Assembly (NCBI GenBank): GCA_018780035.1
Contig: JADMKE010000003.1
Span: forward strand, 274,753 to 338,752
Reading direction: 5' to 3'
DNA length: 64,000 nt
Source of the DNA: Candidatus Sericytochromatia bacterium
Lineage (GTDB): Bacteria; Cyanobacteriota; Sericytochromatia; UBA7694
Shown: positions 57,178-62,383 of the stretch, in pieces
Position numbering within the stretch: the stretch's first letter is position 1
Layout: each line of letters begins with the position of its first letter
Translations under genes and position numbers: made by a program
The notes under the pieces: model-generated
The model's input: only the letters and a program-made list of their open reading frames with translations
Told to the model about the DNA's origin: nothing
Database searches by the model: none

Positions 57178-58557
57178 TTATTTGGGGGCTGCCAGGATCG
57201 ACAGAGCATCCCAAGCGGAAAAAATCCCTTTGACCTTGTGCAAATGGGTGATCACCAGATGGCTCAGTTGGTGATCTACCATCTGTTTGCAGGCTTCTTG
57301 CACCGTACAATCTGGCGCAATTTCCATCATCGCTTGGTTGTCCATAAAATCCCTGACCGGCAGATCCAGAACTGCCATGGGATCTTCTTGCACCATGACA
57401 CCATTGTCGAAGGAAGTGAGCATTTTCTGAGAAAAGGTATAAGAAAAAATATCCGACATGCTGATCAATCCCAAATAGCGCATGCTTTGGTAGTCCACGA
57501 TCGGAACCGCAGAAATTTGGCGTTTGTGGCAGAGTCCTGCAAATTGTTCAACGGTGGTTGAATCCACAACGCAGGCCACATTTTTGGACATCACATCGGA
57601 CATTCTTAAAACACCGTCCTGAGACTCTGGATAATCTTCATTGGGTTCAACCACCACTTGGTGATCTTCGCCTTTTCGGGATTCTTGAATTCGCTTCATA
57701 ATGGCGGCAACAATCTCGTGGGGCGTCTGTCTCTGTTTTTCTGCGGGTGCGGCTACTTTTGTTTGTTCGGCATAGTGTTTTTGCAATGCCTCTTTGGTGT
57801 ACTCCCATTTTTCAGTTTGCTCGTCTTGTGCAACTGATTCGTCTGGGGATTTGTCTTGAGCTGGCGTCTGGGTTTGGGCGTGGGTTGATTTTCGCTCAGG
57901 TGCTTGTGCTGCATGGTAAGGATCATTGTCTGTGAAATTACGCTCGGTCTCTTGAGCCGCATGGTAGGGGTCCGATTGGCGGGAATCTATTTGTTCGGGT
58001 TGATCGCTGGGGTTTACGGCTGGCTGGACAGCAGCTTTAGCTTGAGCGGGTGCAGGCGTTTCAACTGGCATCTTGCCTTGGACACTCGATTCTTGAACCG
58101 GGGTTTCTTGGGCGTGGCCAGACTGGGCTGGTGCAGTTTGAGCAGGGGCAGTCTGAACAGGTTCAGCGTGGGTGGGTGCAGCTTGAGCAGGTTCAGCGTG
58201 GGTGGGTGCAGCTTGAGCAGGTTCAGTTTGAGCAGGTTCAGCTTGGACAGGGGCAGTTTGAGCAGGTTCAGCGTGGGCGGGTGCAGTTTGAGCGGGTTCA
58301 GTTTGAGCGGGTTCAGTTTGAGCGGGTTCAGTTTGGGCGGGTGCAGTTTGGGCAGGGGCAGTTTGAGCAGGTGCTGCTTTGGCCGCTGCCGCTTGGGCAG
58401 ATAGGGCTTGCTCACTTTCGCTCTCTGGCTCAAGGGTCTGAGCGTTGGCAAAGGTTACCAGCTCGATGCTGTTTTGCTTTTTTTCTTGAGTGGGAGGTCC
58501 CTGTGCTTTTTTTATCTCATTTTTGACTGTTGATTTCTTGTAATTAACTTTACTCAT
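57178..58557 (-). CDS. CBS-domain-pair protein with N-terminal (AQTEP)n low-complexity repeats
   Basis: C-terminal tandem CBS domains ('ACVVDSTTVEQ...ISAVPIVD', 'MMEIAPDCTVQEACKQMVDHQLSHLVITH'). The N-terminal half is 'APAQTAPAQTEPAQTEPAQTEPAQTAPAHAEPAQTAP...'. Confidence 0.6.
   Translation of the reverse strand: MSKVNYKKSTVKNEIKKAQGPPTQEKKQNSIELVTFANAQTLEPESESEQALSAQAAAAKAAPAQTAPAQTAPAQTEPAQTEPAQTEPAQTAPAHAEPAQTAPVQAEPAQTEPAQAAPTHAEPAQAAPTHAEPVQTAPAQTAPAQSGHAQETPVQESSVQGKMPVETPAPAQAKAAVQPAVNPSDQPEQIDSRQSDPYHAAQETERNFTDNDPYHAAQAPERKSTHAQTQTPAQDKSPDESVAQDEQTEKWEYTKEALQKHYAEQTKVAAPAEKQRQTPHEIVAAIMKRIQESRKGEDHQVVVEPNEDYPESQDGVLRMSDVMSKNVACVVDSTTVEQFAGLCHKRQISAVPIVDYQSMRYLGLISMSDIFSYTFSQKMLTSFDNGVMVQEDPMAVLDLPVRDFMDNQAMMEIAPDCTVQEACKQMVDHQLSHLVITHLHKVKGIFSAWDALSILAAPK
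58130..58365 (-). repeat. In-frame 15-nt tandem repeat (gggttcagtttgagc-like, about 15 copies) encoding the (AQTEP)n tract
   Basis: Visible on the + strand as 'gcaggttcagcgtgggtgggtgcagcttgagcaggttcagcgtgggtgggtgcagcttgagcaggttcagtttgagc...gggttcagtttgagcgggttcagtttgagcgggttcagtttggg'. Confidence 0.6.
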
Positions 58558-58559
58558 CT

Positions 58560-58740
58560 AAAAATACCCCATATTTTTCTGGTTGTAAATTTAGCATAAC
58601 ACAGAAAAATTGGATAATTTTTTTTGTTTTTATAATAAATTTATTGAAAAAATATTTATTTCAATATTTATTTCGATTATAAATTTAATAATAATATTTA
58701 TTGTTGATTTTTGTTTTTTAAGATTAAATCAAAAGTTTTG
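58560..58740 (-). promoter_or_regulatory. Strongly AT-rich promoter-like region upstream of the CBS-domain gene
   Basis: 'ttttataataaatttattgaaaaaatatttatttcaatatttatttcgattataaatttaataataatatttattg' directly 5' of the minus-strand start at 58557. Confidence 0.3.
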
Positions 58741-59237
58741 CCCGAACCCAATTGTCCCTGGACATGGATCTGCTCACCTTTTAATTGAGCTTGCCATTGG
58801 CTTATACCTTGACCGGGATACTCTTTTTGCAGCTCAGTTTGTACCCAGATTCCATCGCACTGCCTCCAGCCCGGAAAATCTTGATTCAATTCGGTCAAAG
58901 GCACTCGGTAAAGATTTTCCACCAAGCGACGGTCGTCAAAAATCCCCGCAAAACGGGGATAGCCAAAATAGACAAATTGGGCATCTTCGTGCAGAATCAT
59001 CCAATTGCCCACCTGGGCTTTGCGCAGGCGGTTTTGCATTCTATCGTTAAAAAATTGGCTGACATTGACCGATATTGCCTGTTTTTGCCATTCCTGTTTG
59101 TGGGGCACTTCTTCGACCTGAAAACCCTGCTGCCAAGGGGTGCAGGCTGTAGCCGCAGAAATCATTGTTAAGGTGATTGATGTAGCTTTCCACAGGTTGT
59201 GGATGAGTGTAACAACGTATTTATTGGCTATTTTCAT
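58698..59237 (-). CDS. Secreted hypothetical protein, translationally coupled to the TOPRIM-like gene
   Basis: Signal peptide 'MKIANKYVVTLIHNLWKATSITLTMISAATA'. Its start ATG overlaps the upstream stop as ATGA. Confidence 0.35.
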   Translation of the reverse strand: MKIANKYVVTLIHNLWKATSITLTMISAATACTPWQQGFQVEEVPHKQEWQKQAISVNVSQFFNDRMQNRLRKAQVGNWMILHEDAQFVYFGYPRFAGIFDDRRLVENLYRVPLTELNQDFPGWRQCDGIWVQTELQKEYPGQGISQWQAQLKGEQIHVQGQLGSGKTFDLILKNKNQQ

Positions 59238-59896
59238 GGGCTATCCTCACTGCCTTCGAGGGAAAATTCTGGCTGTTGATTTTTTTGTGATAAAGAGCGT
59301 AATTTATTGAGAAAATAGACTGCACTTGGACAAGCCGGGTGTGCTGCCGCTCTTTCTATCGAAAAGTGAAAACTATTGAGCATTTTTTTGCTAAAACTAA
59401 TTTTTGAGCTGCCTGTGCCATGCCCTGCAAATCGTTTGCTAAGCTCATGTAAATAATCCCAAGGACGACCTGGCACCAATTCAGGCTCAAGTTCGTAGTG
59501 GAGCCTATTTAACCAAGCACTCATAGCTTGGCTATCTGCCAAATACCAGGATTCAAGAGATTTTCGTGCAATACAAACAAAAACGGAATCAGGAGCTTGA
59601 ATGCGGCTTCTTACGGCGGTATAACATGGGGCGTCATCCAAATCTGTTAGCAAAATAACATGCTCTGGCGCTGGGTTACGACGCTCGATTAAACTTAAAT
59701 AGCTTTTTAGTTTATCAGGTTTTAAAAAATTGCCATTTCCTTGAGCGTCTATAACAGGTTCAGATAATTCTAGACCATGGCATTTTAGCCATGTCTTAAA
59801 GGCCTGAGACTCTATCAAAATGCGTTCAGATCCCCCTTCTACTACAAACCCCAGCTTTACCATGGCAAACCAGCGCCAAAAGCATTGCTCAACCAA
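59234..59896 (-). CDS. TOPRIM-like protein (OLD-family C-terminal/DUF4276-like)
   Basis: 'LGFVVEGGSERIL' gives the conserved TOPRIM Glu. 'ILLTDLDDAP' gives the DxD motif. The start may be the internal 'MVKLGF' at 59863, 1 nt after the ATPase stop. Confidence 0.5.
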   Translation of the reverse strand: MVEQCFWRWFAMVKLGFVVEGGSERILIESQAFKTWLKCHGLELSEPVIDAQGNGNFLKPDKLKSYLSLIERRNPAPEHVILLTDLDDAPCYTAVRSRIQAPDSVFVCIARKSLESWYLADSQAMSAWLNRLHYELEPELVPGRPWDYLHELSKRFAGHGTGSSKISFSKKMLNSFHFSIERAAAHPACPSAVYFLNKLRSLSQKNQQPEFSLEGSEDSP

Positions 59897-61044
59897 ACTT
59901 CACTCATACTCAGGTCAATGTCTTTTAAATCAAGGTCGCGTGCAGCCACAAATCGTGTTTTGCCTTCAATTTTATCTACCAACCAGAGTTCTTCTGGTTT
60001 GAGTTGATTAATCAAATGGGTATCATGGGTAGTCAGCCAGACTGGATGATTTTCATGTGCTTGAGAGCGAAAAAAAGCTACCAATTCTTGAGTCGCTTTG
60101 GGATGCAAGCCATTTTCAGGCTCCTCAATTAAGCTCCAACCATAAGTGGGAACACTGTAAATGCTCATTAACAAAGACAATAAGTTAATCGTGCCATCTG
60201 AAAGTAATTGAGCAGGCACTGGATCTTTGAGATATTGTTCCTTTAAAAGCAAATAAAACTGATGATCCAAAAGATTCAATTGTGAGATTAAAGAGGTTCC
60301 GCCTGGTACAACCAATTTCAACCAATCGATTAACTCATTCAAGTTATGTCCGCTATTGACGTGTTGTGAAATGACCAAAGCCAAATTACTGCCATCTTCT
60401 TTCAAAATTTGACGCGCTTTTGTCTCGGGGTATGGCAAACGCCCTTGTTGGGGACTTAGCATAAAGCGGTAAATATTACTCAGAATTGTTGCGGGCAATG
60501 AAGTATAAGGGCTGATCAGCAGAATCGATTTATCTTGACTCAAAGAAACTACTTCATGTTTATTCGGTTCAGGACTAAAGTGCACACTGTCTTTGCCTCT
60601 ATCGCGATAAGCCTGAACCCAAGCACTCGGTGATTCTGGGACAACTGTTGAATTCTGAATTTGATTAAGCCTAGGAGATTCCAGCTGTTCTTCAATCTCA
60701 ATTTTTTCACCATCTAAATTGTATAAATTGAGGTGATAAGCATAATGAAGTTCACGCAATCCTTGGCCTTCAATATCCTGCTCTACCACAAAGCGAATTT
60801 TGAATCCCATCGTATCTGAATTATTGACTTTGCAGCGGATATTTTGGATTCCACCAGAAGCATCTATTGCTGCTTGTACTCCTTGTCGGGCCACCAGTCC
60901 AATGAAACGCATAGCTTCAAATAAATTGCTTTTGCCTGCACCATTGGGTCCGGCAAAGACGGAGAAGCAGGAGAGCCCCTCCAATCGAACATGTTCCAAG
61001 CTTTTAAAATGTTTAATCTCAAGGTAAACAATTTTTGTGATCAT
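59857..61044 (-). CDS. AAA_21/AAA_15-type ABC ATPase (OLD/AbiL/PARIS-AriA-like)
   Basis: Walker A 'FAGPNGAGKSNLFEAM', signature-like 'LSDGTINLLSLL', Walker B 'WSLIEEPENGLHP', H-loop 'VWLTTHDTHLI'. Confidence 0.65.
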   Translation of the reverse strand: MITKIVYLEIKHFKSLEHVRLEGLSCFSVFAGPNGAGKSNLFEAMRFIGLVARQGVQAAIDASGGIQNIRCKVNNSDTMGFKIRFVVEQDIEGQGLRELHYAYHLNLYNLDGEKIEIEEQLESPRLNQIQNSTVVPESPSAWVQAYRDRGKDSVHFSPEPNKHEVVSLSQDKSILLISPYTSLPATILSNIYRFMLSPQQGRLPYPETKARQILKEDGSNLALVISQHVNSGHNLNELIDWLKLVVPGGTSLISQLNLLDHQFYLLLKEQYLKDPVPAQLLSDGTINLLSLLMSIYSVPTYGWSLIEEPENGLHPKATQELVAFFRSQAHENHPVWLTTHDTHLINQLKPEELWLVDKIEGKTRFVAARDLDLKDIDLSMSEVWLSNAFGAGLPW

Positions 61045-61189
61045 CTATTTCGTCATTTCCACCCCCTTGAATTTTTTAGTGACCTGACCTGATGAGGGAG
61101 CAGGCGGACTTATATTCACATTTTAAGTGATTTTAGCAGTTCTAAACAGCTCTCATGATTAGGCGAAGATTTAAAATCAAATTCAATCC

Positions 61190-62383
61190 CTAAATTTCGG
61201 GCAGACAGAGATCCAGTGATGTGGCGACAGTGATCGCATCCAAACAGGTGGCGCTATCCAGTTGATTGAAGCGGTGGCGATCAAACCAAGCAGGGTTTTG
61301 CAAAACCGCAGTTTCAACTTGATTGAGGGCGGCTACCAAGATCTCAGGAGTCAGTCGCCGCTCGCTGTACCAGGCCAGACAGAGCGCCTGCACTTGCACT
61401 GCCAGGAGTGAAAAGGCCTGCAAAAAAGCAAATTGAAAAAGCGTTAATCCCTTGGCCTGCAGCGGATTGAGATTGAGCAGGCGGCGGGTTAGATAATTGC
61501 GCAAAACCGCGCTGAGGTGTTGCCTTTCGCTTTCTGAAACAGCAAAAGGCAGGCGATTCCCCTCTTTTAACTTGGCCAGAAAACGATCCAGTGCAGGGGC
61601 ACGAAAGGGATCCAGAACAGCAAACAATTCCAGGCATTCAGACCAACGCGGGGCTTTGGGCCCGGTGTCTTGGCGCCAAGCTTGGACCTGCCCATGATAC
61701 AACTGACTGAGCAAATCCAGCTCGGTCAGAAACAGGGGGTTGGCTGAGATCTGTTTTAAACTGAAAACGCTGCCTGCGAGACATCGCGCTGGGCTGATAC
61801 TGTGTTGCCAAATGCCTTCTAAAAGCAAACCGATCCAGGGTTGAAGCGGTTCAACAGGGGGGTGTTCCCACTGGTCAGGCCGTTTGACCATGCGCAAAAC
61901 CAATTCACCTGTTTCTTCCAACATGCGCGCAGCTGTTTTACATGAACTTTTTAATGAAGGGCTGTAGAGATTTCCGTGTAACGAAGCCTCGTGGGGATAG
62001 CGCTGGCAGATCTCGGGTTTGGCTTCGGCCCCATATTCTTTGTGAATAAAACAGAGATTGTCCTGATCTAAAAACAGACAGCGGTTACTGCCGGGCTGTT
62101 TGTTTAAGACGGCTCGCGTCCCCTCTGTAGCGGGCAAAAAAGGGTTTTTAAACCGGCCAGAGGGATGGTTGTCAAAGGTGGAATACCAATGGTCGTAATA
62201 GTCGGCATCCAGTTCAATATTCCAAGGCTGTTGACAACATTGCGCACATTGGCTGCACTCAAATTGATCTACCTGTTCGGGGTAGACCAACGCCAATAGT
62301 TCTGGCCTGGAGATGGCCTCTTGGGCCAGATCCCAAAACCAAGCAAAAAGTGTGGATCCTTCTGGGGCCCCCTGTAGATTCAT
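61190..62383 (-). CDS. YkgJ/UPF0153-like protein (CxxCxxCC Fe/Zn-binding domain)
   Basis: 'FECSQCAQCCQQPW' followed by 'CLFLDQDNLCFIH' and 'EICQRYPH'. Confidence 0.5.
   Translation of the reverse strand: MNLQGAPEGSTLFAWFWDLAQEAISRPELLALVYPEQVDQFECSQCAQCCQQPWNIELDADYYDHWYSTFDNHPSGRFKNPFLPATEGTRAVLNKQPGSNRCLFLDQDNLCFIHKEYGAEAKPEICQRYPHEASLHGNLYSPSLKSSCKTAARMLEETGELVLRMVKRPDQWEHPPVEPLQPWIGLLLEGIWQHSISPARCLAGSVFSLKQISANPLFLTELDLLSQLYHGQVQAWRQDTGPKAPRWSECLELFAVLDPFRAPALDRFLAKLKEGNRLPFAVSESERQHLSAVLRNYLTRRLLNLNPLQAKGLTLFQFAFLQAFSLLAVQVQALCLAWYSERRLTPEILVAALNQVETAVLQNPAWFDRHRFNQLDSATCLDAITVATSLDLCLPEI

Follow-up and report, generated by a model that had tools for sequence, protein, structure and literature searches.

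Three co-directional open reading frames (ORFs) were called on the minus strand at 58698–61044 of a 64,000-nucleotide (nt) stretch of a Candidatus Sericytochromatia bacterium genome (contig JADMKE010000003.1, positions 274,753 to 338,752; referred to here as the window), as reported in an earlier note made from the sequence of this DNA. The first two, gene A (61044..59857, minus strand, 395 amino acids (aa)) and gene B (59863..59234, minus strand, 209 aa), encode an ABC-type ATPase and a DUF4276/TOPRIM-type putative nuclease, and by their profile matches they are a divergent member of HEC-01, an already catalogued candidate anti-phage family. In the interpretation favoured here, which was given a probability of roughly 0.7, A and B make up an HEC-01-type cassette of two genes, inserted horizontally between two resident genes that normally abut. 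These are a 397-aa CxxCxxCC-motif gene on the left flank (61190..62383, minus strand), which is not a component of the system, and a 179-aa lipoprotein-like gene on the right flank, gene C (59237..58698, minus strand).

Gene A was matched by the Pfam models AAA_21 (E 1.3e-23), AAA_15 (1.1e-12) and SMC_N (4.3e-11). In PADLOC-DB it matched HEC-01A (PDLC04176) with an E value of 9e-91 and 303 bits, residues 4–395 aligning to positions 2–371 of the 371-position profile, while the other systems scored far lower (AbiLi 3e-29, AriA 9e-25, mad3 6e-17, Old 4.5e-12). The Walker A motif was located at G32–S39 (GPNGAGKS, 60928–60951), the signature motif at S282–T285 (SDGT, 60190–60201), Walker B at residues 303–308 (WSLIEE, 60121–60138) and the H-loop at H340 (60025–60027), all on the minus strand, which bears out the AAA_21/AAA_15 ABC ATPase with these four motifs that had been proposed from the sequence. 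An alignment of 72 sequences, the window A and 71 homologues from related loci, revealed that Walker A (GxNGxGKS), SDGT and His 340 are invariant or nearly so. The Walker B of the family reads IEEPE (306–310), with a glutamate at the usual aspartate position in 71 of the 72 sequences; judged from this alignment, the replacement is a trait of the ATPase family and not a defect of the window copy. Sequence and profile searches of the PDB with A returned only Rad50/SMC matches at the level of the Walker A motif.

Counted from a TTG codon, the longest ORF for gene B has 220 aa; the ATG at 59863 gives 209 aa and an MVKLG start that resembles the usual N-terminus of the homologues. The protein matched the HEC-01B models PDLC04191 (E 1.1e-65) and PDLC04185 (E 2.5e-58) over its full length, and PADLOC-DB gave no AriB, AbiL, mad3/Old or other named-system match outside HEC-01. 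The hidden Markov model (HMM) search that the earlier note had proposed for B gave DUF4276 in Pfam (E 3.3e-7; 31.2 bits, with the cut-off at 30.2) and no DUF4435, RloB or Toprim_Old match; no NCBIfam family matched B or C. According to PMC12065111, DUF4276 belongs to the Toprim superfamily, has the catalytic Glu and DxD, and is the domain of Mad4 in MADS. The VVEGGSE and DLDD motifs lie at residues 7–13 and 74–77, placing E9 at 59837–59839 and D74-L-D76 at 59636–59644 (minus strand), and HEC-01B is reported to have the metal-binding site of BpOLD (10.1101/2024.01.29.577857). In a 29-sequence alignment E9, D74, E104, D110, H175 and C178 were invariant, and most homologues had Glu at position 76, where the window copy is among the few with Asp.

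The same alignment served to build an AlphaFold model of B, which had a predicted local distance difference test score (pLDDT) of 90.5 and a predicted template modelling score (pTM) of 0.85. Its elements run strand-helix-helix-strand-helix-strand-helix-strand, with E9 right behind strand 1 (2–8) and D74-x-D76 closing strand 3 (68–74), so that the model contains the Glu past strand 1, the DxD at the end of strand 3 and the four-stranded alpha/beta core by which a TOPRIM fold is recognised. Model support for the TOPRIM layout is real but moderate: a Foldseek search of the PDB with the model gave no significant match, sequence and profile searches of the PDB with B gave only spurious EF-hand matches, and hhalign did not match the B profile to phage P2 Old. 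The earlier description of B as a small partner with TOPRIM hallmarks agrees with the DUF4276 match and with E9 and D74/D76.

Genes A and B share the 7-nt overlap ATGGTAA (59857..59863, minus strand), in which A ends (...W*) and B starts (MVK). The earlier note had offered either a 1-nt gap or an overlap, of which only the overlap stands. The same 7-nt geometry was found in 59 of 64 homologous pairs from other phyla, a count that takes in 25 pairs whose longest-ORF start is an upstream start, and its recurrence across phyla argues that translation of the two genes is coupled. The B subfamily comprised 842 clusters at 50% identity at E ≤ 1e-3, and 128 at E ≤ 1e-30, in a search of 1.84 billion representatives, and in nearly all of the 80 genome loci with sequence available A lay directly upstream of B.

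HEC-01, or 'Hma-embedded candidate 01', was described as an ABC ATPase with a TOPRIM protein (Payne et al., bioRxiv 10.1101/2024.01.29.577857). The window locus has the same two genes, the ATPase followed by a DUF4276/TOPRIM protein of about 200 aa, adjacent and co-directional, with full-length HMM matches of A to HEC-01A and of B to HEC-01B and with the metal-site residues kept. It differs in being a divergent branch, with at most 47% identity for B and 35% for A to the nearest relatives outside the lineage, and in standing alone between two housekeeping-type genes. Embedding in Hma or another defence operon, the context of discovery that the models do not demand, is absent at the window locus.

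These results support the view that the ABC ATPase and the small TOPRIM-type protein are an OLD-like pair split over two genes and a candidate anti-phage module, while the statement that the architecture could not be matched to a named system has to be withdrawn, as HEC-01 is in PADLOC and parallels Mad3-Mad4 of MADS (PMC11464382, PMC12065111). Four better-known systems were compared and rejected. PARIS shares the split ABC-ATPase sensor and small TOPRIM effector in adjacent genes (PMC11464382), and it is the best mechanistic analogy for the pair. Membership was rejected because PARIS AriB is a DUF4435 protein while B, a DUF4276 protein, had no DUF4435 or AriB match at E ≤ 1, and because A scored 9e-25 on AriA against 9e-91 on HEC-01A. 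Mad3-Mad4 of MADS also pairs an ABC ATPase with a DUF4276 TOPRIM protein (PMC12065111, PMC11464382); however A reached only 98.9 bits on the NCBIfam MADS3 model NF047739, which has a cut-off of 420, B matched no mad4 model but only PADLOC models labelled HEC-01, and no mad genes adjoin the pair. AbiL is likewise a two-gene ABC ATPase with a TOPRIM-type partner, but that partner, AbiLii, is of RloB type and B had no AbiLii or RloB match. In contrast to the OLD family (P2 Old in class 1, BpOLD and GajA in class 2), the ATPase and TOPRIM parts are separate ORFs; in Pfam, B matched DUF4276 alone and A matched no TOPRIM domain, and the locus has no Toprim_Old Pfam match, P2 Old profile match or GajB-like helicase partner as in Gabija.

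The insertion was located by comparison with related contigs. In L006 (C 64% and CxxCxxCC gene 83% identical) and L007 (59% and 79%) the two resident genes are separated by 2 nt, and in L098 (59% and 60%) they overlap by 1 nt; none of the three has A or B at this site. DNA homology between the window and L006 or L007 ends at the stop codon of the CxxCxxCC gene and resumes at about 59149, near the lipobox cysteine of C, where protein homology also begins again, thus delimiting a lineage-specific segment of about 2.0 kb (roughly 59150–61189). It consists of a 145-nt leader upstream of A (61045..61189, minus strand; presumed promoter and ribosome-binding-site region) with no counterpart in L006 or L007, genes A and B, and the first approximately 29 codons of C (about 59150–59237), which contain the ATGA overlap with B and have no counterpart in the cassette-free relatives. 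The relatives' C proteins begin with short canonical lipoprotein signals (…L-S/T-A-C), while the window C has a longer, unrelated N-terminus. The insertion apparently replaced the 5' end of C, although signal peptides also evolve fast.

Gene C itself is a resident gene and not a third component, as judged by its distribution and composition. The proposal that it is secreted is plausible in the sense of a lipoprotein, its long signal-like N-terminal stretch ending ...SAATA|C with the cysteine aligned to the lipobox L(S/T)AC of the homologues. Those homologues formed only five clusters in a search of 5.8 billion proteins, all from this lineage. Among about 80 other HEC-01 loci no C homologue was present, and clustering of all neighbours gave no shared third gene. 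The ATGA junction joining C to B (59234–59237) is real as described; however B overlaps unrelated downstream genes by 4 nt at 11 of 66 HEC-01 loci, which makes the junction a habit of the cassette and not evidence of partnership. The GC content (guanine plus cytosine) at third codon positions (GC3) of C is 0.47, nearer the host value, and its synonymous divergence resembles that of the flanks and not that of the cassette. The suggestion that a secreted third gene belongs to the system is therefore not upheld, since C directly follows the CxxCxxCC gene in the contigs that lack A and B and its homologues are confined to this lineage.

Composition set the pair apart from its surroundings. Together A and B have 41.1% GC, compared to 49.0% over the whole window, which puts them at the 1.7th percentile of segments of equal length, and GC3 was 0.36 for A and 0.32 for B against 0.52–0.60 in the CxxCxxCC, Band_7, FGE-sulfatase, DUF7691 and TRAM genes; the leader has 37.9% GC. 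As the earlier note had cautioned, another part of the window is comparable, a region near 7.5 kb being as AT-rich as A and B. The nearest genome match was a Candidatus Sericytochromatia metagenome-assembled genome, with 95% identity for B. All further relatives had at most 47% identity for B and 35% for A, and came from Burkholderiales, Thiotrichales/Beggiatoa-like bacteria, Latescibacterota, Bacteroidota and others, the nearest B proteins being in Pseudomonadota, Latescibacterota and Bacteroidota. Absence from the same site in three related contigs, the GC3 values and nearest relatives in other phyla support the proposed accessory and horizontally acquired status, and on this sequence evidence A and B are a solitary, horizontally acquired cassette.

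Within 58400–61400 no target-site duplication or terminal inverted repeats were found at the insertion boundaries, and a promoter and terminator scan of the same interval gave site counts equal to chance. The leader contains no consensus sigma-70 site and no significant RNA fold (z = 0.52). The suggested check for a flanking tRNA or integrase found no integrase, transposase or tRNA adjoining the insert, the nearest tRNAs in a tRNA scan being about 20 kb away. These form a five-tRNA cluster (Ser-GCT, Asn-GTT, Ala-TGC, Arg-TCT and Arg-CCG) at 37809–38466, which is not associated with the cassette.

The term 'island' used in the earlier note is not borne out. On the side examined no other PADLOC-type defence gene occurs within about 17 kb, and a defence island within the window was rejected, the cassette being solitary there. 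A PADLOC scan gave no match for eight of the nine larger ORFs at 42–55 kb or for the Band_7, CBS and CxxCxxCC genes; the ninth ORF, a TRAM RNA methyltransferase about 4.4 kb from the cassette, had a generic methyltransferase-domain match (mad2, 4e-13). The only other defence-like locus near the cassette is an McrBC-like pair on the source contig (L001:3126-6045), outside the window and about 4–8 kb past 61044, consisting of a 456-aa protein (PADLOC PDC-M26A, E 4e-40; weak AAA_5) followed by a 519-aa DUF2357 and PDDEXK_7 protein.

The order A-B-C is kept in the closest C relatives, contigs L002–L005 and L014 (91% identity), and the divergence of the cassette was measured between the window (59234–61189) and L002 (5516–7466), a comparison of two alleles only. 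The dN/dS ratio (nonsynonymous to synonymous divergence) was 0.265 for A and 0.264 for B, compared to 0.11–0.12 for the flanking genes, which indicates purifying selection on both genes that is weaker than on the flanks. Divergence was unevenly distributed. Synonymous divergence (dS) was 0.27–0.53 in the flanking genes, 0.019 in codons 1–80 of A (one amino-acid difference), 0.395 in codons 81–280 (36 differences and a 3-residue indel), 0.057 in codons 281–395 (no difference) and 0.086 in B (11 differences, 94.7% amino-acid identity). Identity to L002 was 96–99% for the leader, for codons 1–80 and 281–395 of A and for B, compared to 83–89% for codons 81–280; the leader was almost identical and better conserved than the flanking genes. 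The middle 200 codons of A thus diverge at least as strongly as the genomic background. This mosaic suggests recombination within the cassette.

The variable block of A (60205..60804, minus strand) lies between Walker A and the signature, and its codons 81–180 had a dN/dS of 0.45. ABC defence ATPases carry inserts between these two motifs (10.1101/2024.01.29.577857), and from its position and variability the block is tentatively taken as the insert region and a sensing surface. A bolder proposal, possible but doubtful, is that A contains a recombining, immune-receptor-like sensor block which changes by allele swapping or by diversification of a trigger-sensing insert in a natural population, and that the insertion gave the resident lipoprotein gene a new start and signal-peptide region. 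If true, translation of gene C would be tied to an immune cassette.

Several observations weigh against a defence role for the HEC-01-type cassette. The DUF4276 match of B barely passes its cut-off, and the literature consulted yielded no biochemical data on any DUF4276 protein. At 17 of the 77 columns conserved in the family the window A does not have the consensus residue, with R195M, R311N, E342T, R346N and D381S among the changes. When HEC-01 was tested by its discoverers it gave no protection against any phage tried (10.1101/2024.01.29.577857), and many relatives stand among housekeeping genes, for example after the ATP synthase operon with xseA downstream or between prfB and lysS, so that guilt by association is only partial. 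The window cassette seems to be placed in a similar way. In favour of defence, an HEC-01 from a cold seep gave E. coli B protection from one or more of T7, T5 and T4 (PMC12881386); a third paper still regards HEC-01 as an unvalidated candidate.

The alternative that survives best, though unlikely, is that the pair is an accessory guard for a methylation-based system (BREX, Hma, restriction-modification or MADS), which would sense anti-restriction proteins in the manner of PARIS and would be a near-functionless orphan in this genome. The surroundings of the relatives, which also speak for the defence reading itself, lend it some weight. PglX-type methylases lay upstream at 9 of 61 loci, and PglZ and second AAA_15/21 ATPases downstream at 5 and 7 of 66, with HsdS, ResIII, Cas3/Cse1, JetD and RhuM among further neighbours; the pair is often inside BREX or restriction-modification operons, and on E. 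coli IncHI1B plasmids it sits between pglX and pglZ of BREX-1. The family was also discovered inside Hma, the isolated pair gave E. coli no protection, and Mad3-Mad4 belongs to the multi-gene MADS. Against the guard role, most of the 60–66 immediate neighbours are unrelated housekeeping genes, the isolated cold-seep HEC-01 did protect E. coli B, A and B are under purifying selection, and no BREX or restriction-modification genes were found near the window pair. A search of a phage collection gave only one partial B match, in an unannotated 2.4-kb record. The E. coli pairs embedded between pglX and pglZ of BREX-1 resemble HEC-01, with B about 40% identical, and were seen on plasmid NZ_CP010234 (L095; 74709–76393) and ten further E. 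coli plasmids, mostly conjugative and of IncHI type; the genes overlap tightly, carry no annotation beyond 'AAA family ATPase' and 'hypothetical protein', and offer a natural E. coli setting for the family.

A non-immune role is rather improbable, whether as a selfish addiction or toxin-like module or as a mobile RecF/RecR-like DNA-maintenance pair of an SMC-type ATPase and a TOPRIM protein. RecR is a TOPRIM protein, A also matched RecF N-terminal and SMC_N models, the annotation of AAA_21 names a putative AbiEii-type toxin domain, and the experimental backing for HEC-01 defence is thin. However the RecF and SMC matches of A cover the Walker A region only and fall far under their cut-offs, the distribution is patchy, horizontally transferred and repeatedly inside defence operons, and one plaque assay was positive (PMC12881386).

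It is very improbable that the cassette is a decaying remnant that persists in this lineage after losing its function. The departures of A from the family consensus, several of them at charged residues, would fit such a history, the changes being found only in the A and B of this lineage, but the window and the independent contigs L002–L005 and L014 all have intact ORFs for A and B, the catalytic motifs are present, dN/dS is about 0.26, and the last 115 codons of A show no amino-acid change relative to L002. Least credible and largely refuted is a three-gene system in which secreted C acts with the ATPase and TOPRIM protein as an envelope sensor or effector, since its co-direction, its ATGA overlap and the A-B-C order of L002–L005 and L014 are set against the A/B-free contigs, the single-lineage distribution of C, the lack of C or any shared third gene at other HEC-01 loci, the overlaps of B with unrelated genes, and the host-like GC3 and flank-like divergence of C.

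If A and B are a HEC-01-type defence cassette, their action may be sketched by analogy with PARIS, OLD and Gabija. The insert of about 2.0 kb would have arrived horizontally between the CxxCxxCC gene and lipoprotein gene C, together with a leader of its own and, it seems, a new 5' end for C. An oligomer of A would bind and hold nuclease B, as the ATP-dependent AriA sensor of PARIS holds and releases the AriB TOPRIM nuclease (PMC11464382), and would sense an infection cue through the variable insert region. Binding or hydrolysis of ATP would then release or activate B, a putative metal-dependent nuclease that may cut tRNA or DNA and so abort the infection. A complex of A and B, cleavage by B, the infection cue and protection of this host against phage are all predicted from these analogies.

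A second lineage-specific indel adjoins gene C. The 459-aa gene at 57178–58557 encodes a protein that combines an N-terminal half of low-complexity (P)AQT repeats with CBS domains at the C-terminus; the window and L002 have this gene, and L006, L007 and L098 lack it at that position. The 140 nt between it and C (58558–58697) have 15% GC, with two tandem copies of AATATTTATTTC and several palindromes. This interval is largely conserved in L002 and may be a promoter or UP-element region of the CBS gene.

The significance of the locus is modest. It is assigned to an existing candidate defence family and the three-gene reading is corrected; the architecture is not new and should not be presented as such. 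The anti-phage activity of HEC-01 is weakly documented so far, and the family is extended here to Sericytochromatia, the non-photosynthetic relatives of cyanobacteria. The locus also allows a clean comparison of a resident gene pair before and after it received a minimal defence cassette, with no mobility gene present, and the middle of ATPase A, as the variable and probably trigger-sensing part, could guide mechanistic work on the family.

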